Origin: Octopus vulgaris
Lineage: Eukaryota
Direction of reading: 5' to 3'
Length of the DNA: 64,000 nt
NCBI GenBank assembly: GCA_951406725.2
Contig: OX597832.1
Location: 23,808,001 to 23,872,000 of the forward strand
A program made the translations under genes and the position numbers. Below the pieces are notes generated by a model. That model did not search any database. It was not told the DNA's origin and saw only the letters and a program-made list of their open reading frames with translations. Numbering within the stretch: the first letter of the stretch is position 1; each line of letters starts with the position of its first letter. Shown one piece after another: positions 11,555 through 64,000 of this stretch.

Positions 11555-12803
11555 CAGGGTGCGTAAGATATATATAAGAACAGATTTATGTTTATAAAAA
11601 CACAGATATATAATAACAGATAATAACTGTATTTATCAAAACATGTTATGAGGATAAAAATAAACCTTCTTTTCTATAATGTTATGCAATAAGAGCAGCC
11701 TTCAGCTTCAACAACTGCTTCTATATGAGATCTAAATCATCTACATGTTCGATTCAAGTGGTCCTGGTTCATTTTGGACATTACTCTGACTATGGCAGCT
11801 TTCAAAGAATCTTTGGTGTTATGGGCATGTTCATTGACCTCTCTCTCTCTCAACAACGCTCCGCATGTAATAGTCCAATGAATTGAGATCTTGGGAATTA
11901 AGAGGCCAATTGTTAGAGGTTATGTGATCATAAATATTTTCAACCATCCATTCCTGTGTTACTAAAGCCATGTGTGATAGTGCAGAGTCTTACTGAAACA
12001 CATACGGCCTTCCATTGCATACACTGTCTATCCAGAGCTTGACAATTATTTCCAGGACCTCTAAGGCCTTGTGGAAAGAGGTAAGGAGGCATCACATGTC
12101 CTTCATTGCTGACAAACCTTAAAACCATGACAGTTGCAGGAAATTTTGTAAGCATAACACTTGGGACTTCAGAAAGGTCTTCACATTACAATCTATCATT
12201 TCTTCTGTTAACTTCTTGATTTTGGTCGAAGTTTTTCTCATTTCAGAAAAACCAAATCAAATCTTCTTCTACTGGATTTTTCAGTTTGTTTAAGAGCCTT
12301 TCAGATCTGATGTAGTGATTTTCTTTTGTTTTTTCGGACAAACTGACCTTTCCTCGTCATATAAAACATATTTGATGTCTTCGTGGACAACATTTCTGAC
12401 TGTTCCTTCTGACACATGGAGATCTTTTTCAATTGACTTCATGGAGTTTCTAGGATTGAAATCAATGGCCTGTTGAATTTGCTGAATAAATTTAGGTGTT
12501 CTGATGATTTCAGAGCGTTTAGAATGCTTTTTATGCTTTGATACTGGTGATACGTTTCCATCTTCAGTCTCTAACTCCTTACAAATTTTGTAGACGAAAG
12601 ATCTTGCAACATTTAAAAATCCAGATATTTCTAAATCGCTATGCTCAGCCTTTATAACCACAATAAGAGCATACATTTTCACTTCCTGAGTAAGCTGAGG
12701 GTCTGCCATTATTATTTTCTGAAACAAAGATTATACAGAGTTAGCAAAAAATGCAGCTGTGACCCATTAAATTGTTACGTCCTCAAATACCATACGCACC
12801 CTG
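11555..12803 (-). mobile_element. Decayed Tc1/mariner (maT/DD37D-like) DNA transposon
   Basis: TA-flanked TIRs CAGGGTGCGTA / TACGCACCCTG. Frameshifted transposase: HTH region (ORF 12290-12727), TKFPATVMVL..VSNEGHVMPP, and a WP.NS.DLN.LDY-like motif. Confidence 0.88.
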
Positions 12804-49660: not shown

Positions 49661-51294
49661 CTGGAAAGGAAAGCAAATTTCTTTCAGACAAGGGAATTAG
49701 AAAGTAAAGGACAAGGTCATGCAAAACCCCAGTTTACCTATATACAACAATAAAATGGGCAATTAACAGTATATATGGAACCTGTATAGGTTTATAAACA
49801 GGCCTAATTAAACTATTTCTCTAAAGACTTTAAAATAAAAACCTTAATTGATTTTTTAAATCTTGCTGGATTCTCATCAGAAGTGTCTACAACAATATGA
49901 CTAATTCCAGAGAAACCAGCTGAGTGCACACTCGACACACAGAGTGCACGCTCAGCACACAGGGTGCACGCTCAGCACACAGTGCACACTCAACACATTG
50001 GGTGCACACTCGACACATTGGGTGCATACTCACTTTGTTTATATATTGTATATACTCAACATATGATATGCAAATTAGTAGCTCCAGTTTCTTGTAGCTA
50101 CTGAAATTGTTAACATTTTAATATCAGGGGCCTGTCAACAGGGATCTCAACCCACAGAATGATCACTGTATGATATCCTATATGTAACCTATATACTAGA
50201 GATATAAACAGGGCTGGCTGATATATAAACAGGGTTGCTTTGGAAACCACGTGGTTTCAGTCTCATTGTGCAGCAGTATCTTCTATAACCCCGGGCCAAC
50301 CAATACCGTGCGAGTGAATTAGGAGATGGAAACTGAATGATTAACTCTGTTCAAGAAAGTCAAGGGTAGACAACTCTCGGAAAGTGAACTGATTTAAAAA
50401 AATAGACTTCAGCAGGGAGTGACCTCGAGAAGTATAGCAATAAATGGAAATATTTGGGGATTATAAGATCATCCCAGTATAGTGAACTCTTGTGTAGTTT
50501 CAAAGAGGATCATCATAATCCCCATTTCATGTCCATTTTCCATGCTGGCATGGATGGATTGGATGGTTTGCTAGCCGGCCAGAGAGCTTCACCAAGCTCC
50601 AATTGTCTGTTTTAGTATGGTTTCTACAGCTGGATGCCCTTCCTAACACGACCCACTTTACAGAATGGACTGGGTGCTCCATGCATGGGACCAGCACGGG
50701 GATTCCATGCATGGGACCAGCATGTGATCAGGCTACTATTTCTAGCCAACTGACCAATCACAGGTGCTATCATTAGTCTTGCCTAATGACACATGATATG
50801 ACAAAATTGGGGGCGGGGCATAGTTGATTAAACTGACCCCAGTAGGTCACTATTGCTTATTTTAATGAAGCTGGAACATTGTAGAGGAGATTCAAGTACA
50901 GAATGTGTAAAAGGGACAAACTAAATACCACAAGGTATTTTTTTGTGTCTGCTCCTCAGGCATGGCTAGTCACAGATGAGGCTGTGTGGTAAGATGGTAA
51001 GAAGTTTGCTTCCCAATCACATGGTCCCTGGTTCTGTTCCACTGTGTGGAATCCAAGACAAGTGCCCAAGATGCCACACAGGAATCCTAGGAACCTTATG
51101 AGTGGATATGAAGGAAGGAAACTGAAGGAAGCCTGATGTGCGTGTTACTCTCTCCTTGCTTTGACAAGGCATGATAGTCGTAAACGAGAGCCACCATCAT
51201 GCAAGCAGTGTCTATTTTTAATCTTTCTTGAAAACATGTCTGGCCAGGAAGAAATGTTTTCTTACTTACCAACAAAGCACACGGAGTTCTGTTT

Positions 51295-51885
51295 TTGATT
51301 CGACGGTCATTCAGAATGCTCACAGCAGCCATATTCCTACTGCTATATGTCACGCTGGTGAGACCCATATTGGAGTACGGGATTCAAGCCTCTTCTCCTT
51401 ATCTCCTCAAAGACATACATCATCTCAAAAGAGTCAAGAAGCTGGCTACCCGCATGGTTCTTGGTCTCAAGCATTTGTCTTATGAAGAAAGGCTAAAGAC
51501 GCTCGACCTTTATTTTCTAGAAAAACGACAACGCCGTGGTGATCTCATTCTTGCTCACAACATAAGTGGAAAGTGTAACCTCTCGAAAGAGCTGTTCTTC
51601 ACTCCTGCTCCAGAGCGTCGGCTGCGGGGTCACTCCGAAAGGCTCTATCTGCGACAATTTCATCTCAATTGAAGGAGAGGGGCTTTTTCCGTCCGGGTTG
51701 TGGATCTGTGGAATAAGCTGCCGGACGAGATAGTGAAGATGCTGACGACCGCTCGGTTCAAAGTCTCTCTTGACCAGAAATGGCCTGAACTCTTTGCATG
51801 AACACCCTCACTGTACATAACTCCATGTCCCCCTACATGGCCTTGCTTTTTGCTTTTTGAGCCAAAAAATTAACTTAACTAACTT
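51295..51885 (+). mobile_element. CR1-clade LINE 3' fragment
   Basis: Reads LYVTLVRPILEYG...LSYEERLKTLDL..LEKR.RRGDLI, the typical CR1 ORF2 C-terminus. Short 3' UTR and (TAAC)n-like tail. Confidence 0.85.
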
Positions 51886-52620: not shown

Positions 52621-54149
52621 CTAGAAAAGAAAGGAAAAGCAGTTACAGCGGAACACAGAACCAAGAAACATAAGACATGACATGCTTCAGTAAACACTGA
52701 AAACTGGGCCAATTATGAGCCAATCCTTCCAACAAAGTATCTCTCTCAGCATAACTTCTCAACTAGTTCGTTGCAACTTAAGGGAGCCTCACTAAGCTGC
52801 TGGAAATAGCAGTCAAATCTATCTTCAAATTACATCATGCCATCCCAAAAGGATACAGTAGACACATCAGACAGTGGTGTTTCTAATACACAAAAAGCCA
52901 TGATGGTCATGGCTAGAATGCCTTTGATCATAGGGCCCTTTCATCAGGGCTGACTTGGTCTAAACACTGTTTTTTTTTTTATTGGGAACCGTATTTTTTA
53001 AACCTCAGTAATATATTCATCTGATTTATGTAAGATTGGAAAAAAATAGATGCAAAAATGAACGAACGTGTTTGTGTGTGTCAATACATATAAACAAATT
53101 AAATAGGGAGATACAAATGACAATTCACCCCTTTGAAGGAATTTTTTTCCTTTGTTACCTTATATAATACACGAGAGTAAGCACAAATGTGAAACAAGGT
53201 GGGAAAATGGTACTCGAATACCTATTTCTTTTCTACCCACAAGGGGCTAAACACAGAGAGGACAAACAAGGACAGAGAAACGGATTAAGTCGATTTCATC
53301 GACCCCAGTGCGAAACTGGTACTTTATTTATTGACCCCAAAAGGATGAAAGGCAAAGTTGACCTTGGCGGAATTTGAACTCAGAACGTGACGGCAGACGA
53401 AATACGGCTACGCATTTTGCCAGACGTACTAACACACACACACACATGAGCACACACCCACACATGCAGACAGACATATACATGCATGTGTGTGAAGTGT
53501 GAATAAAGCTATAAAGTAGAGAATATTGACAGGTTAGAGCAAAGAAAAATCTATAATTTGAAATTATTCCTGCTATCAGGCAATTAAAAAGCAAATATCT
53601 TTACATCCACTTTTCCCATACCAGTATGAGTTAGATGCAATTTTGTTGAGTATTCTAAAAATCAGATAAGCTTCCTATTACCAATTCTACTCATTTCCAG
53701 AATACTTATTCCCTTTGCCACTTGCATGACAGAACTATTGAACAGCCAGAAATGATTTTACGATACACTACTGCAAACAGTGATACTATTATGTAAGCAG
53801 TGACATTGTTTCATGCTATGTATGTGAACAAGGCTTCCATGATCACAATCATTTAATGCCCGTTGTCTATGCTGGCATGGGTCGGATGGTTTGACCAGAG
53901 CTGGGAACCTGCATCACACTCCAATCTGATTAGGCATGGTTTTCATGGCTGGATGCCCTTCCTAATGCCAACCACTTTACAAAGTGTGTTGAGCGCTCTC
54001 ATGTGGCGTCACATGGGAGCTTTCACATAGCTTGCCACGAGTGCTTTACACAAACCAGAAGGATCGGTCTTAACACTCTTGTACAGTTTCTATCAACCAA
54101 TTTTAGTCACAAACCAATGACCAGCCCATAGAAGCGCGCACGCGCATGC

Positions 54150-54510
54150 GTATGTGTGTGTGTGTGTACGTGTATATGTGTATGTACGTGTGTGTGTATG
54201 TATGTACGTGTGTGTGTGTATGTACGTGTGTGTGTGTATGTACGTGTGTGTGTGTATGTACGTGTGTGTGTGTATGTACGTGTGTGTGTGTATGTACGTG
54301 TGTGTGTGTATGTACGTGTGTGTGTATGTACGTGTGTGTGTGTATGTACGTGTGTGTGTGTATGTACGTGTGTGTGTGTATGTACGTGTGTGTGTGTATG
54401 TACGTGTGTGTGTGTATGTACGTGTGTGTGTATGTACGTGTGTGTGTATGTACGTGTGTGTGTATGTACGTGTGTGTGTGTATGTATGTATGTATGTGTG
54501 TGTGTATGCA
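54150..54510 (+). repeat. 14-16-bp compound minisatellite (TGTGTGTGTATGTACG)n
   Basis: Direct inspection. Confidence 0.92.
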
Positions 54511-55031
54511 TAGGTGTGCGCATGTGTGCACTACATGCAAATGTGTGTGCGTGTGCGTGTGCAAATACTGTGACAAAAAAGGTTTCGTTGACTAAACGTG
54601 TTTGTAAACGACAAGTGTTTGAGGAGGGAAAGCAAACGAAAATGCAACACCTGCTGTATTGATTCCACCTTAGGAAACAATACAATTGCTCTTATTGCAT
54701 ATTCCTGTTAACATAAAAAAGGAAAACAAACCCTCTAAGTGGTTGCTCAGCCTGCTAGCTAGAAATAGCAGTCAAATAATGTTCAAAATCATACTCCACT
54801 ATCTTAAAGACGTAACACATTGGATAATACTCTTTTACTTGTTTCAGCCATTTGACTGTGGCCATGCTGGAGCACCGCCTTTAATCGAGCAACTCGACCC
54901 CGGGACTTATTCTTTTGTAAGCCCAGTACTTATTCTATCGGTCTCCTTTGCCGAACCACTAAGTAACAGAGACATAAACACACCAGCATCGGTTGTCAAG
55001 CAATGCTAGGTGGACAAATACAGACACACAA

Positions 55032-55092
<61 letters not shown>

Positions 55093-56135
55093 CATACATA
55101 TATACGACGGGCTTCTTTCAGTTTCCGTCTACCAAATCCACTCACAAGGCTTTGGTGGGCCCGAGGCTATAGTAGAAGACACTTGCCCAAGGTGCCACGC
55201 AGTAGGACTGAACCCGGAACCATGTGGTTGGTAAACAAGCTACTTACCAGACAGCCACTCCTGCGCCTATATATATATATACATATATACGACAGGCTTC
55301 TTTCAGTTTCCGTCTACCAAATCCACTCACAAGGCATTGGTCGGCCCGAGGCTATAGCAGAAGACACTTGCCCAAGGTACCACGCAGTGGGACTGAACCC
55401 GGAACCATGTGGTTGGTAAGCAAGCTACTTAGCACACAGCCACTTCTGTAGTCCTAGATATATTATGTCTGGATCGAAAACAGGTTGGTGATGGATTGAG
55501 TAACTGAACAAAAGTTTCCTCAGTCAGGTTTGACGAGGTAGGGTAAACATTACTAATAAAAGGAATTAGAGTAAGAAAAAGCTAATAAAGGTCTGAATTA
55601 GTAATCAGCTAGTATAAATAAATAAAAACTGGATCGAGCAGTGTGTGGTGTGTTCTGGAGCAAAACGCTTCATTCTATGTTGTTCCAACCAGAAACTTTC
55701 TACTTCATAAAACAGTTTTGCTGTACATATTGAATCAAGCAAAGCTGTGACTTAGATGAAGTCAAAGTATTTTATTTTAACATCCACGTTTCCATGCCGG
55801 CATGGGTCGGATGGAATTTGCCAAGGCAAATTTTTCAATGGCTTGATGCCTTTCCTGTTGCCAACCCTCACCTGCTTCCATGTAAGATTTATATTCCCCC
55901 ATGGCTAGACCAAATGTATTTTCACAGAAGATTACTTCTTGTCTGATGGTGACTCATTCACAACTATCAGGTTATGTCAACGCAAGGAAACGGAAACACA
56001 CACACACACACACGACAGGCCTCTTTCAGTTTTTGTCTACTAAATTCACTCGTATTTAAACACACACACACCTACATATTTAAACACACACACACATTAA
56101 AATGCATGCACACATACATACATACACATAAAGAA

Positions 56136-56167
<32 letters not shown>

Positions 56168-57034
56168 CTACATGTTTAAACATTCACACAGACACACACT
56201 TAAACACAAAGTATGAATAATCTTCGAAAAGCACCTGTTACATAATAGAAAGTATCTCAACAGATGGCATATTTCTCTCTGTGCAGGTATAAACTAATTT
56301 ACTGAAAAGCACTCTTACACATCATTTATACCTTTTATTATTTTTTATTTTCATTCCTTATACACTCACACATTCTCTAACCCTTCTGGCCAGGTTTCTT
56401 TGGTTCAAAAGTAAGAAATCTGGCTTAAAACACAATTAGAACTTTGCAGGGAATTCCCAACAATGTTATCATAAAATCAATTATAAACTACAGATTACAA
56501 AACTGTCTAGAAGTAGACAGGTGTTTCACCATGCTGTCTTCTATATCATATAAAAGATCATTCACAAAGACATTTCTCACAAACTAGCATTATTGAAGTT
56601 GTTGATTCTTTTCAAAAAGTGTCCAACACAAAATAGACTCCAAAGAGGAAAAGCAGGAGACAGGATTAAATAGTAGCCAAACAATCCCTCCGTCCGATGA
56701 GGGGGATTTCTATCAGATAAAATATCTGTACAGAGGATCTTGTTGGCTCAAGTTTGCATCTGTTGGCAGCAGATTATAAAATGTATGTAATTAGTAGAAT
56801 TATCTAGTAATTTTTTACTAGTTTCATCTTGTCTCCTTGTTTTCTCTCTGTGTTGATATATGGACCATTAAAGTGGTTTCAGAGTCAGATCATGGCTGCT
56901 ATTTTCAGCATGGTGGTATCTCATAGATACCCTAATTTATGATTTTAATAATCATTACTTTTGAAGGTTTTTTTTTTCCATGCTGACCACTTGATAAAAT
57001 CATTATTTTATTTAAAATTAACGATCTTATCCTT

Positions 57035-57380
57035 TACGGAGATGTACTTGCATAGCAAGTGATCTGATCTGAGATCGTGTGCTGGAACGAAAACAATTGC
57101 AGCATGGAAGGTGTCTGTAAGCCATTTAAGAAACACACAAAAGCCGTTCGATTCACTTCAACATTTAAGTTTAATTTGTCAAAATATTTTCGTCGCTTTA
57201 AGACCGCGACCTGTTCACTGACAAAAATCCGTGCTGCATCTGAGAGAGTAACAGTTAGTTTGTTATATATATGTACGTGTGTATGTATGTATACACGCAT
57301 GCATGTACGTACGTCTGTGTGTATGCATGCATGTATGTATGTATGTACGCATGTGTATATGTATGTATGTATGTATGTGT
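57035..57380 (-). mobile_element. Second short hammerhead-bearing retroelement with terminal microsatellite
   Basis: Flanked by a 12-bp direct repeat GATCTTATCCTT (57023-57034, 57381-57392). It sits in the end of another repeat whose uninterrupted inverted copy is at about 48076-48190. Confidence 0.65.
57175..57225 (-). ncRNA. Minimal type I hammerhead ribozyme-like motif (G3-C8 swapped core)
   Basis: Minus strand TTTGTCA-GTGAACA-G-GTCGC(GGTCTTAAA)GCGAC-GAAA-ATAT-TT-TGACAAA: 7-bp stem I, 5-bp stem II, palindromic stem III. Confidence 0.65.
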
Positions 57381-57397
57381 GATCTTATCCTTATTTA

Positions 57398-57466
<69 letters not shown>

Positions 57467-58066
57467 CAGACTTCTTTCAGTTTCCATCTACCAAATCCAC
57501 TCACAAGACTTTGGTCAGCCCGAGGATATAGTAGAAAGACACTTGCCGAAAGTGGCAAGCAATGAGATTGAACCTGGAACCATGTGGTTGGGAAGTAAGC
57601 TTCTTACCACACAGCCACACATGCACCTGTATATGTATTTTCAGCATGATTTTGGAAAATAGTTTCTAATCTTTCTGCTAACCAAACAAGTTTTTAATAT
57701 TACTATTCCCTACTGAGAGTGAATGGCCAAAGGACCTAGGAATTATGGTAGGGGTCAGAATGTTTGTGAACTAGGTCAAGAAAGGGCACTGCTGGGTATC
57801 TTTTATCTTTTAATCTTCTCAGTCATTGAACTGCAATCAAATAGATCCACCCACCCAGTACTTATTTATTAAGCCTGGCACCCATTCAAGTGGTCTCTTA
57901 CACCACCAAACTGACAAGTTATGAGAAGGTAAAGAAATCAACAAAGTCGTCGGGGCAGAGGTGGGGAACAGACACCCACACAGACACACCCACAAAAACA
58001 CACAGAAAGACACACACACACACAGAAACACACACACACACACACAGAAAGACACACACACACAAA

Positions 58067-58116
<50 letters not shown>

Positions 58117-58908
58117 ATGCAGTGAAACTGAACCCAGAATGCTATTTTATTGAAGCTGGAAACAAACCTCGCAAACCGTTACTCAGAGTTCCACACAAGA
58201 CAGTGACGAGTACTCAGAGAGCAACACAACAGCTTACAAATATTTTACAAATACACATACGCATACACACACACACACATATATAAATATATATACACAC
58301 ACACACACATGCACACACACACACACACACAGCACAAATATGCACAACCACACACGAAGGACGACCAAGGCTGGAAAGCCTTCGCTCACACATCGACTTT
58401 ATCACCCCGACTGACCTGGAGCTAAACAGCAACAGATATGGCATGACTCAAGAGGAAATCAATCAATAAATAAAAACTGCTCAGATTAGAAACGTTAAAC
58501 CACTCACTGCCTAACTGCTTTGTTTCACTTTTGGGTGACCAATAAATGTTTTATCAGCCTCTCTTTTGCACACTCTCTCTTTCTCTCTCTCTCTCTATTG
58601 CAGTTCACAAGAAGCAAATATGTTTGAGGCCTTTCAACAACACGTGGTTTTTTTCTTTATCTTGTTGTTTTTACATATATACATAATCATTTGGCTAAGT
58701 CATTGTACTGGGGCATTACTAATTCATGAAGCTATTAACTTTATCTTGTGTGTTGGTATCTCCATTTACTGCTGTAGATCAATATAACTCTTAATAATAC
58801 TCGCCACGAGTAAAATGATTTCACACACACACACACACTCGTGTGGATATACATGCATATATATATACAGGGTGGGTAGAAAGTAACTAGGTATTAGATT
58901 GCTTATAG

Positions 58909-59127
58909 CAGTGCTTTTCAACCTTTTTGCTGGAGCGGAACCCCAAGGAAACATTCCACTGGCTCGAGGAACCCCTGTGCAATAATTTAATTGTCTTATG
59001 CACGTGTATCTGCACAGGAGAATTAAAAATTACTGTCGATTTTAGCATTTTTGTAACTTCTTGCGGAACCCCTGGACTGTACTGGCGGAACCCTAATGTT
59101 CCGCGGAACCCTGGTTGAAAACCACTG
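58909..59127. mobile_element. hAT-type MITE, copy 1
   Basis: CAGTG..TTTCAACC / GGTTGAAAACCACTG TIRs. 8-bp TSD GCTTATAG/GCTTATAA. Closely similar to 61152-61370. Confidence 0.85.
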
Positions 59128-59372
59128 GCTTATAAAATTTTTAGTATCAGTGAAGTTATGACGAAAAACGTTTTTTTAAAACAGGCAACACTAATGGGGA
59201 TTTTTTTTTATTTTTCTATTGTCATATTTCTTATTTCCTGTTTCCCAGATGCCTGGTCACTCAACTGTTCTGGACCAAGCTAAGATAGTAGCACGCTATG
59301 AAGTGTGGAATTCCATTGTTTTGGTTCAGAGATGGTCGCATGAATGGAAAAATAAGCATGCAATATTATGTC

Positions 59373-59572
59373 GGGAGAGTTTACGAAAAAAACAAAAGAC
59401 GAAGACAGGTGGTGTACAAAACAAACAGATGTATTAGTATAACGCTCAGGAATAGAAAAAGTCTTTTACGTTTCGAGCCTACGCTCTTCTACAGAAAGGG
59501 ACACAGAATAAACAAGGAGAGAAAAAGATGCGTGTAGTGGCTAATGATCTATCATGGTGACTGATAGAGCGA
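59373..59572 (-). mobile_element. 200-bp non-coding retroelement with minimal hammerhead-like motif (Penelope-like/retrozyme-like)
   Basis: Flanked by a 12-bp direct repeat CAATATTATGTC (59361-59372, 59573-59584). Removing it rejoins the interrupted transposase frame (..KHAILC|PETIK..). A related copy lies at about 975-1160. Confidence 0.75.
59463..59498 (-). ncRNA. Minimal type I hammerhead ribozyme-like motif (A6U core variant)
   Basis: Minus strand CTTT-CTGTAGA-A-GAGC(GTAG)GCTC-GAAA-CG-TA-AAAG: stem I, core, stem II, GAAA, palindromic stem III, GUA site. Confidence 0.6.
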
Positions 59573-61151
59573 CAATATTATGTCCAGAGACAATAAAAAG
59601 TAGTTATGCAAAGCTGAAGACCACGGGCTCTGTGAATGATGCAAGAGGTGGCCGTCCAACCACATCCCGACCTGTGGAGAAAGTGACAACAGTGCAGGAA
59701 ATGTCTAATCACAGCCCGCAAAAGATCAACACGTGAAGCAGCTCATGGAAACCCCATTACATGCAGGAGCTAAAACCTGAAGATTGTGACCACAGAAGTC
59801 TAGATCTCACTCCATGTGATTTTTACCTGTGGGGTTACACAAAAGAACAGGTGACCCAAGACAAAACCTTGCACACTGGAGGACTTGGAGACATGGATCG
59901 AGGAGGTTCTCAATGAAATCTCAGATGATGTCCTTCAGAAGGTTGTTCATTCCACCCCTGGTCGTTTGAGGAAACTTGCTGATGCCACCGGTGCTTGCAT
60001 TGAAATATGAAGATTTACTTTCATTTTCCCCATGTAATAAAGAACATGTATCATTTGTTTCAATAAATTTCTAAAAGGAATATGGATTTTATTAAGTTTT
60101 AATGCCTACTTACTTTCACCCACCCTGTGTGTGTGTGTATTATATATACACACATACACATCGAGAGAGCCAGAGTGTGACCGAGAGAGAGAGAGAGAGA
60201 GCCAGAGTGTGATCGAGTGAGAGAGAAAGCCAGAGTGTGACCGAGAGAGAGAGAGAGCCAGAGTGTAAGCAAGTGAAAGCCTCAGAGAGAATGCCTCTGA
60301 CTGTAAACCAGCCAAGATAAGCCAAGGGTTAAACAGCAATAGAAACAAAGTCGCCTGGATGCCACAATATGTGATATTTCCAATATTAACATCCAAACTT
60401 GAAGAAAACAAACAAACCAACATCTCTCCACCCACTCTTGTTTTGTTTTGTTTATTTTCGGTCAAGCTGAAAGTTTCTAATTTGAAATCAAATTTCAATA
60501 TGACTAAATCTGCTTCCAATTTACTGCAGTTGCTAATATTCATCAATAGCCAAGAGCAAGGAGCAGGGGTGGGTAGGGAGAGGAAGGGGCTGTGAATTAA
60601 GCCAAAAAAAAAAAAAAAAAAAAAAAAAGCATGGAGATTAAAATCTGCAGTATTGATTAGGATTACTAATATTTCTTGATGTTTTTATTGGCTGGCGGCC
60701 CGAAACACCTAAGTACGGAACTGTGAATGATCAAGAAGCCAAAAATGGTAAATAATCTGCAAATTTATTTGTCGGCAGTGGTGGGGAGGGCGAGGTGGGA
60801 GAAGGAGAAGGAGAATGAGTTTGAGAATGGATAATAATGATAGTTATAACTCTAAATTCTAATTTTAAATCTTGTATGCATGATCAACCGTAAATTTTTG
60901 TAGCATAGGAAAAAATACTTCGGATACTTTTAAAAGCAACAATGGTTTGGCGCCGATATATTTATTGAAAGCAACAGTTTTGTCACACTGCCAACAAGAT
61001 GGTCAACAGCTCATAGTTAATCCTATCATAGGCATCCTACTGTATGCACTATATCCATCCATGGCCAGCTAATGTAATTCTCAAATGGCTCAGTTCATTT
61101 AGCCAGAAATAAATATCAAAGGAAAATACAGCTCACCGCGAATATCTACAG

Positions 61152-61370: not shown

Positions 61371-62482
61371 ATCTACAGTAATGCCTCACCTATCACAGGT
61401 GTTACATTCCAAAACCCTGCCACAATAGGTGAAAATCCGCAAAGTAGAATGAACTGTATGCTTTTATTTTTATAATTTGTATGTATTTACTCTGTGTCAT
61501 ATGCCCACGAGCGTATGGCATAGTGGGTCTATCAGCCGAAACATTGTGTTAACAACATACAAGACGAGAACAAATATCCGCCAATTGTAAATAGTATAAA
61601 TAATGTACATAATTTATTCTGTTTCATGTTCAGACTGGCCAGATCTGGCCTCTTGCACCTCCCCTGCAATGTCATTCTGAAATTTAAGTTACCTCATGTA
61701 AAATCTCAAAGCTACAAAATAACGCATTATTAATTCAAAATGATTTGAATAAATAAAAATTACATTCGATAGAATAATTGGACGGCCTAAAGGATTAAAT
61801 TCAGCTTATTCGGTCAAGTTTTCAAAGATGTATTTTCCCAACACACAGCAAGTGAGATTACCTGATAGAGGAGGGGGCGTGGGAGTGCGGACGTAACCCT
61901 GGGTCAATGAAAGCATGTAGGCAACAGAATGTCTATTCACATGTTGACTTAGGCCAGCTTGCAAAACATGTGTGTTGTGTCTTGAGGGCACACAAAATCA
62001 TAACCATTTTATTTCTGGTCACGTACACATTCTCTCATGAACTTGGACTCATTCCAACATGAAAAAAATATTCCAACAATAATAAATATGTTGTTTACAA
62101 TGGTTGTAACAGTTTAACGAATAAAAACAACCAGAAGACGGTGTGTCTGTATGCATGTGTAACTAATTAGGTGGCTGGCTTCATTAAGTCTTTAACATTC
62201 AGACTACTTTGCCAAATGTAATGGCTGTTTAGTCACATTTTTTGTAGCTATGAGATTTTGAGGATATGATTATTTTTAGATTAACATTGTAAGGTAAGTG
62301 TGAATGGCTAGAACTGGTCAGCTTCCATAAAAGAGAGGGAGAATATTTGAGTTGGACATGGCTGGATTCAACGGTAAAGGGTGAAGGTTTAACTGAAAAG
62401 TTAGGAAGTCATTCTTTCATATAAACAGGCCTATATTATAAGCATGTAGGAGAGAGGCAGTCAGGCAGAGAAAGGAAAGAGT

Positions 62483-63590
62483 GGGCAGGCAGAGACGGAG
62501 ACGGAGACGGGCGGGCAGGCAGGCAGAGACGGAGACAGTGAAGGGCGGGCAGGCAGACAGAGACAGTGAAGGGCAGGCAGGCAGACAGAGACGGAGAAGG
62601 GCGGGCAGGCAGGCAGAGACGGAAAAGGGCAGGTGGGCAGACAGAGACGGAGAAGGGCAGGCGGGCAGGCAGAGACGGAGAGGGGCGGGCAGGCAGGCAG
62701 AGACGGAGAGGGGCGGGCAGGCAGGCAGAGACGGAGAGGGGCGGGCAGGCAGGCAGAGACGGAGAAGGGCGGGCAGGCAGGCAGAGACGGAGAGGGGCGG
62801 GCAGGCAGGCAGAGACGGAGAGGGGCGGGCAGGCAGGCAGAGACGGAGAGGGGCGGGCAGGCAGGCAGAGACGGAGAAGGGCGGGCAGGCAGGCAGAGAC
62901 GGAGAGGGGCGGGCAGGCAGGCAGAGACGGAGAGGGGCGGGCAGGCAGGCAGAAACGGAGAGGGGCGGGCAGGCAGGCAGAGACGGAGAGGGGCGGGCAG
63001 GCAGGCAGAGACGGAGAGAGGCGGGCAGGCAGGCAGAGACGGAGAGGGGCGGGCAGACAGGCAGAGACGGAGAGGGGCGGGCAGGCAGGCAGAGACGGAG
63101 AGGGGCGGGCAGGCAGGCAGAGACGGAGAGGGGCGGGCAGGCAGGCAGAGACGGAGAGGGGCGGGCAGGCAGGCAGAGACGGAGAGAGGCGGGCAGGCAG
63201 GCAGAGACAGAGAGAGGCAGGCAGGCAGGCAGAGACAGAGAGAGGCAGGCAGGCAGGCAGAGACAGAGAGAGGCAGGCAGGCAGGCAGAGACGGAGAGGG
63301 GCGGGCAGGCAGGCAGAGACGGAGAGGGGCGGGCAGGCAGGCAGAGACGGAGAGGGGCGGGCAGGCAGGCAGAGACGGAGAGGGGCGGGCAGGCAGGCAG
63401 AGACGGAGAGGGGCAGGCAGGCAGGCAGAGACGGAGAGAGGCGGGCAGGCAGGCAGAGACAGAGAGAGGCAGGCAGGCAGGCAGAGACAGAGAGAGGCGG
63501 GCAGGCAGAGAGAATGAGAGGCGGGCAGGCAGTGAGAGAAGCGGAAAGGCAGGCAGAGAGAGAGAGAGAGAGGCGGGCAGACAGAGATGG
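62483..63590 (+). repeat. GC-rich 28-bp minisatellite (AGACGGAGAGGGGCGGGCAGGCAGGCAG)n
   Basis: About 1.1 kb of tandem 28-mers. The 28-aa periodicity of the overlapping ORFs reflects three units. Confidence 0.95.
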
Positions 63591-64000
63591 ACGAGGAGAG
63601 TGAGGGCAGAGGGAAAACAGAGAAGTTGGTGGTAGCCTGATGGTGTAGGAAAGAAAGTGATGAGAGTGGCATGTTTGGGGCATTAAACAACCTTCACTCT
63701 CCGCATGGATTAACTAACAAAAGACAAAAAAAAATGTTACATGACCTTTTAATTTTTTTTTTTGTTTTTCATGGCGTTGCTTGTTTATAAAATCCTGGGT
63801 CATTAACATAAGTGATTTATTACAAGTCACATAATACATTTCAGACAATTAAGTAATTCTAGGAAAGGCCTCGTCAACAAACAGAAGCAGCAGCAGCAGC
63901 AGCCAGTCACAGAATCAATAACAATGTCACAAAGAGAGAGGAGGAGGAGGAGAGAGAGCAGATGGGGAGAGAGTGTGAGGGAGAGTATGAGAGAGAGCAA

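Follow-up and report, generated by a model that had tools for sequence, protein, structure and literature searches.

A natural G3-C8 swap in the hammerhead core of an octopus Penelope-like element

A short repeat in the 64-kb window, the whole stretch of octopus DNA analysed here, carries a minimal type I hammerhead in which both partners of the core 3-8 pair are exchanged (G3-C8), and the unit around it derives from a coding Penelope-like element (PLE), of which it is a copy truncated at the 5' end. The preliminary description had proposed that the exchange is compensatory; cross-family covariation and a derived state in the reverse transcriptase (RT) tree bear this out, and we regard a compensatory origin as very probable. 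Penelope hammerheads may or may not have to be catalytic, given their low activity in vitro and insertion in vitro that proceeds without catalysis. The double transversion seen here is derived and preserves the active-fold pair; with a canonical sister in the same genome, it argues for selection on the fold, and the two sister families, A and B, amount to a natural A/B swap experiment on the 3-8 pair.

Sequence and fold of the window motif

Direct reading of the minus strand from 57225 to 57175 confirmed the motif as first described, with its stems, core and extra G, and with both exchanged bases in place. Its features, each read from the sequence, are listed below; the fold as a whole is further supported by RNAfold, a descriptor search and covariation.

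57175..57225, minus strand: hammerhead fold, minimal type I
57225-57219 / 57181-57175, minus strand: stem I
57210-57206 / 57196-57192, minus strand: stem II
57218, 57213, 57212 and 57191, minus strand: core bases G3, C8, A9 and G12
57211, minus strand: extra G after A9
57188-57183, minus strand: stem III palindrome AAUAUU
57182, minus strand: U17, in the triplet UUU; predicted cut between 57182 and 57181
57175-57170, minus strand: ATTAAA

The core box is GUGAACA rather than a literal CUGANGA. The motif has a Watson-Crick 3-8 pair, U4, G5, A6 and A9, G12, A13 and A14, a 15.1-16.1 pair and an NUH triplet, together with stems I and II, the extra base after position 9 and the palindromic stem III. 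Stems I and II form its minimum-energy fold (RNAfold; z -1.9), and 10 of 200 shuffles were as stable, so that fold energy alone is weak evidence. A relaxed hammerhead descriptor matched the 64-kb window at this motif only, while 100 block-wise dinucleotide shuffles gave 13 loose matches, two of them with a Watson-Crick 3-8 pair and none as strong. Rfam at E<=10 over positions 54000-60000 returned no hammerhead family and only microsatellite noise, as anticipated by the earlier remark that a canonical-motif search would miss the motif; thousands of motifs like it escape descriptor and Rfam searches.

The stem III duplex of family A is weak (-0.2 kcal/mol), and this, with the UUU triplet, predicts low cleavage activity. 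Cofolding of two monomers gave swapped stems I/II, a double hammerhead not being representable in that program. The ATTAAA noted earlier at the 3' edge of the motif is present; its reading as a poly(A) signal was rejected, as copies run 80-140 nt beyond it without poly(A) tails.

Borders and identity of the window unit

The unit and its landmarks are the following:

57023..57034, plus strand: target-site duplication, copy at the element's 3' end (12-bp direct repeat)
57381..57392, plus strand: target-site duplication, copy at the truncated 5' end (12-bp direct repeat)
57035..57380, minus strand: 5'-truncated copy of Penelope-like family A, 346 bp (colinearity with long copies)
57035..57125, minus strand: first 30 codons of the RT/GIY-YIG ORF, ATG at 57125-57123 (translation of 57125-57036)
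57035, minus strand: distal family end at ORF +91, putative reverse-transcription start site
57090..57097, minus strand: second recurrent family end (in other copies) at ORF +30 to +35, putative second reverse-transcription start
57239..57241, minus strand: recurrent 5' end of short copies elsewhere, putative capped transcription start
57242..57380, minus strand: microsatellite-rich 3'UTR of the element, common to long copies, in which the truncation lies

The 12-bp flanking repeat is a real target-site duplication, being exact and adjoining the family's fixed 3' end exactly. Between its two copies lies the end of the 3'UTR/pLTR plus a long tail, the PLE "tail" being the ~60 nt between the two 3' ends of family A. 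The last 91 bases of the unit are the start of the family A ORF. Two parts of the preliminary description therefore need correction: the unit is not wholly non-coding, as the ORF of the element begins in it, with its first 30 residues encoded by 57125-57036, and it is not a non-autonomous family of its own, because that ORF start is encoded there and the unit is colinear with the UTR and ORF start of the coding element. The end of family A is also found downstream of long open RT/GIY-YIG frames of up to 1025 aa, so that there is a coding PLE sharing this end, of the kind suggested as something to look for. Short family A copies look like by-products of the element's insertion mechanism. A direct second copy nearby was seen at 0 of 70 sampled loci and at 1 of 30 top-match loci (L025).

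Directly beyond the duplication and a (TA)n tract, positions 57466-57620 hold a common repeat, which we take to resemble an octopus SINE. Elsewhere in the window, 51232-51672 (plus strand), 12290-12730 (minus strand) and 62417-63713 contain fragments that, by eye, look like a CR1/L2-type LINE C-terminus and a Tc1/mariner transposase, as well as a long GC-rich tandem repeat.

Coding partners: families A and B

A protein search of the source genome, in which the best 150 of 3,326 candidates were scored, gave two families, A and B. Family A carries the window-type hammerhead, and its longer copies continue past a microsatellite-rich UTR of ~1.0-1.9 kb and reach RT and GIY-YIG domains. The 1025-aa frame at locus L064, which is without its true N-terminus, has the RT motifs DKSG, YGLRKDHK and RYVDD, a CX3CxxC linker at residue 896, a CCHH motif (two Cys at VYQIKC, HAVDCH at 965) and, at the C-terminus, a GIY-YIG domain (Pfam, 25.4 bits against a cut-off of 22.6). 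No RT profile in Pfam or NCBIfam matched this frame, and a PDB search gave only a weak RT match (E 0.004). Partial tandems and inverted partners are present in family A (L064, L066, L068), and the tandems at L066 and L068 have a hammerhead on each side of the ORF. Family A thus shows the traits of an endonuclease-bearing PLE: a pseudo-LTR from partial tandems, inverted 5'-truncated partners and an optional tail. With this coding partner and the features of the motif, the earlier reading as a Penelope-type minimal type I hammerhead stands, and the window unit is almost certainly a Penelope element. By its CX3CxxC linker and CCHH motif, family A would fit Neptune or Nematis, its relatives in the tree being unnamed; placement in the Hydra clade, whose members lack CCHH and have a CxCX5C linker and DKT, was rejected, as CCHH, CX3CxxC and DKSG are present. 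Source-genome searches with the distant relatives P0050 and P0089 found only families A and B among the scored matches, a floor set by a stricter first pass, and viral contigs gave no relative.

Family B is 52-57% identical to family A. It is a young family that has 3,577 matches and open frames of up to 1312 aa, many of them reaching that length. The host gene model P0088, "dynein regulatory complex subunit 6-like", begins with ~150 residues of family B RT, either by exonisation or through an annotation error. In the family B motif at L067:6892 and the motif at L084:2497, position 9 is C instead of A and a G comes after it, and a further canonical-core minimal hammerhead lies in another repeat family (L081:7273, minus strand).

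Covariation of the 3-8 pair across families

Seven families were aligned: the two octopus families and five distinct motifs from 19 metagenome loci, which lie downstream of related RTs (three found by descriptor, two by eye). Several metagenome loci were excluded as too short, L089, L090 and L092 as duplicates of L088, and no hammerhead motif was found downstream at L086. Across the seven families the 3-8 pair is always Watson-Crick (C-G in five, G-C in one, U-A in one), and none of them shows a single unpaired change at position 3 or 8. Pairing holds in 97.4% of the cells of the alignment, both sides vary in 9 of the 11 pairs, and 0 of 500 shuffles reached the observed covariation; slid controls paired at 22-49%, the structure having been chosen from the same sequences, which favours it over these controls. 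The covariation suggested as a check at stems I/II and at 3/8 is thus present, and all stems covary across the seven families, stems I-III also between families A and B. U4, G5, A6, A13 and A14 are invariant in 7/7 families and G12 in 6/7 (L088 is without it). Stem III is palindromic in 6/7, that of family B not being a perfect palindrome, and U17 is common to 5/7. In the related Penelope hammerhead at L085:4973, U15.1-A16.1 replaces A-U inside a perfect palindrome.

In the RT tree (quick search), family A is sister to family B (SH-aLRT 98), with C3-G8 outside, and family B has C3-G8 in 98 of the first 100 of its 3,577 matches. Because the sister family and the outer families have C3-G8, the G3-C8 of family A reads in this tree as the derived state; U3-A8 in L084 is a separate event. 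By analogy with a report ("data not shown") that G3-C8 works less well with C17 (PMC3884650), U17 may have been the state that permitted the swap.

Copies across the genome and their ends

A 228-nt query from the window was searched against the source genome and the best 40 of 1,585 candidates were scored; apart from the window's own copy, these family A copies are 95-97% identical to the query. Exact patterns counted genome-wide gave 6,845 copies with G3 and 209 with another base, and an 18-mer downstream of the motif has 11,175 exact matches. The motif is accordingly conserved across genomic copies, as had been proposed for checking, with G3 in 38/38 and C8 in 36/38 aligned arms (30 loci from the window query). 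A non-microsatellite duplication of 8-14 bp was seen at 12/30 loci, many others lying within (TA)n. Assembled contigs from four sequencing runs, listed under four organism codes, showed no variant at >=5% at G3 or C8.

Ends were mapped at 70 position-ordered loci (30 non-G3, 40 G3), a few of which are likely segmental duplicates. Relative to G3, the 3' ends fall into two groups, +119 to +128 and +175 to +186, and the 5' ends into one, -19 to -25. Head-to-head doublets make up 43 of the 70 family A loci; 40 of the 43 pair a long-tail arm with a short-tail arm, and 12 have a 10-14 bp duplication. Family B has the same doublets and two ends, at +160 and +216. Doublets of one long and one short arm are the mark that two-ended insertion with two reverse-transcription starts leaves in a genome, and the copy population of family A lends independent support to the insertion model with two start sites and two ends that was shown in vitro with one lizard element.

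An extra G often precedes the 57239..57241-type 5' end (18/27 short copies), long copies having C or T there, and loose ends in the contigs lie at 57241. We infer that this G is a copied cap, although in some cases it may come from the target or the other arm. The recurrent 5' end is crossed by 946 matching copies, against 6,845 core matches, and the window copy is of the longer kind. Of 30 downstream-selected copies, 29 continue across the predicted cut and none begins there, which counts against a role of the hammerhead in making the insertion template.

On the minus strand, 57262-57240 holds a branch-point-like CTAAC, a pyrimidine tract and an AG directly before the recurrent 5' end. It resembles the intron end beside helix I of Drosophila Penelope, but no spliced family A copy was seen. 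A spliced-leader reading of the sequence before 57239 was rejected, as the bases upstream of short copies vary and share no common first exon. In family B, a motif that lies ~60-75 nt upstream of C3 and is presumably YY1-like gathers the 5' ends (L203-L227) and is a possible internal promoter.

Variation within family A

The core of family A is barely more conserved than its flanks (3/418 against 134/6,965 letters), and neutral decay after insertion would also give such weak conservation. Young and old subfamilies alike keep the remaining core bases. At position 8, 231 copies carry G and 163 carry T or A, and 94 of the first 100 G8 copies have a G3·G8 mismatch. C-to-G at a control C amounts to ~17 copies (13 of the first 100 of 134), a G8 excess of roughly 13x. 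No C3-G8 copy was found among the first 100 of the 209 non-G3 matches. The G8 copies are not one distinct subfamily, since 30 of them share no diagnostic column, and they lean mildly to the older type (18/26 vs 18/43, p 0.046). They may record a G3·G8 intermediate or mark a mutation hotspot. Because two doublets carry G8 in both arms (two others do so in one arm), an unpaired 3-8 core may transpose, and the data suggest that the pair is not strictly needed for it.

Proposed mechanism and alternatives

We lean towards a mechanism in which the pseudo-LTR hammerhead with its swapped G3-C8 pair would be a conditional self-cleaver that governs transcript fate, rather than making the insertion template. 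Conditional self-cleavage in family A is in itself probable, and the hammerhead shape is likely still under selection, both judged from sequence comparison. Self-cleavage would be slow and would require either a dimer or the protein of the element. Transcripts would start ~22 nt upstream of G3 and be capped, the endonuclease would cut AT-rich DNA, and reverse transcription would start at ORF +30 or +91, usually from one site per DNA end. Copying of the 5' pseudo-LTR would yield ~200-nt units, and copying of the 3' pseudo-LTR longer truncated units such as the window copy. A cut after U17 would sever the capped leader from the ORF, because it lies between cap and AUG; alternatively, it would split tandem read-through RNA into unit lengths. 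A fuller picture, with a natural active G3-C8 hammerhead fixed in ~7,000 copies, a genome that keeps the G3·G8 intermediate, stem III pairing two transcripts in one particle and dimerisation explaining the one-long-one-short insertions, is distinctly doubtful.

The fold could instead be maintained for a purpose other than catalysis, for instance as a site that binds protein or as an RNA dimerisation signal bringing two templates into one particle, and cut rarely or never. Such a role agrees with the origin of inserted copies from uncut RNA (0/30 start at the cut), the G3·G8 excess, the doublets with one arm per start site (40/43 loci) and the palindromic stem III of 6/7 families, as well as with the normal insertion in vitro of catalytic mutants of the Anolis element (PMC11167929). 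It leaves the invariant U4, G5, A6, A13 and A14 (7/7) and G12 (6/7) unaccounted for, the 3-8 pair matters in the active conformation, and family B forms the same doublets though its stem III is an imperfect palindrome; we consider this reading unlikely. That the ribozyme is dead in family A, its G3 and C8 having drifted or been fixed otherwise and pairing by coincidence, is very improbable. A double change restores a pair about once in three by chance, and G3·G8 copies exist, but the other independent double change, U3-A8 in L084, pairs as well, none of the seven families shows a change at just one of the two positions, stems I-III covary between A and B, and the rest of the core is retained in both young and old subfamilies. 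Core promoter elements lie at +24 to +35 of the transcription start, and the motif falls within +24 to +35 of the putative start, so that fixation for another reason, such as an internal promoter lying past that start, would suit this position.

Tandem precursors cut to unit-length RNA and religated to circles might also be the main templates for long insertions (the Cervera and de la Pena model). The partial tandems at L066 and L068, in which hammerheads lie on both sides of the ORF, would fit, and with a circular template the cut site would come through copying unbroken, as it does. Most copies, however, stop ~22 nt upstream of G3, with the extra G in 18/27 short copies, which points to linear capped templates, and only 946 copies match across the 5' end against the 6,845 core matches; circular templates are accordingly quite improbable. 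Conditional cleavage of a linear capped transcript is the reading that we prefer.

Comparison with known systems

Among PLEs, the Poseidon_Ac element of Anolis carolinensis is close in behaviour. Its hammerhead depends on the element's protein for cutting, insertion in vitro can do without the ribozyme, and RNA-seq showed no ends at the cut site (PMC11167929). Like family A, it has two internal reverse-transcription starts in the 5' end of the ORF that define a tail, with both strands extended and AT-rich targets. The tail is 30-40 nt in Poseidon_Ac and ~60 nt in family A, and the AUG overlaps stem II in the former, whereas it lies ~57 nt downstream of the predicted cut in the latter. Poseidon_Ac belongs to the Penelope/Poseidon clade and its swap was engineered, C3G/G8C partly restoring cleavage; family A has a CX3CxxC linker and its swap is natural.

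Neptune and Nematis PLEs share with family A the C-terminal GIY-YIG domain, a CX2-5CxxC linker, CCHH, inverted 5'-truncated partners and a (TA)n target bias (PMC8557442). Unlike them, as that paper describes them, family A has a long (~1.0-1.9 kb), microsatellite-rich 3'UTR. Non-LTR retrozymes (bioRxiv 10.64898/2026.07.22.740005) also carry a type I hammerhead related to those of PLE pseudo-LTRs; they are direct tandem arrays of non-coding units, whereas family A copies stand alone or head-to-head and are continuous with the sequence of a coding element.

In the active fold, positions 3 and 8 form a tertiary contact, and cleavage is restored in part by engineered C3G/G8C (PMC11167929, PMC8495972). 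Covariation at 3-8 is accepted as natural and compensatory (PMC3088659), the text of that paper naming U3-A8 only, whereas family A has G3-C8. We found no natural G3-C8 hammerhead in the literature, only the engineered rescue, though figures, supplements and reviews may differ, and a listing of publications returned none on the octopus Penelope hammerhead of family A.

Minimal type I hammerheads in the pseudo-LTRs of metazoan PLEs were described in PMC4209133. Like that of family A, they combine the pseudo-LTR position with an extra base between 9 and 10.1, G10.1-C11.1, a palindromic stem III, an AU-rich 3' flank and a common U17, and truncated elements account for thousands of solo copies. 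Their core has the consensus CUGANGAH, whereas family A has G3-C8 and G as the extra base; a natural U3-A8 variant in Schistosoma Cercyon is the only core covariation in the text. As far as that text goes, it describes every other feature of the window motif, and the natural G3-C8 pair appears new beside it.
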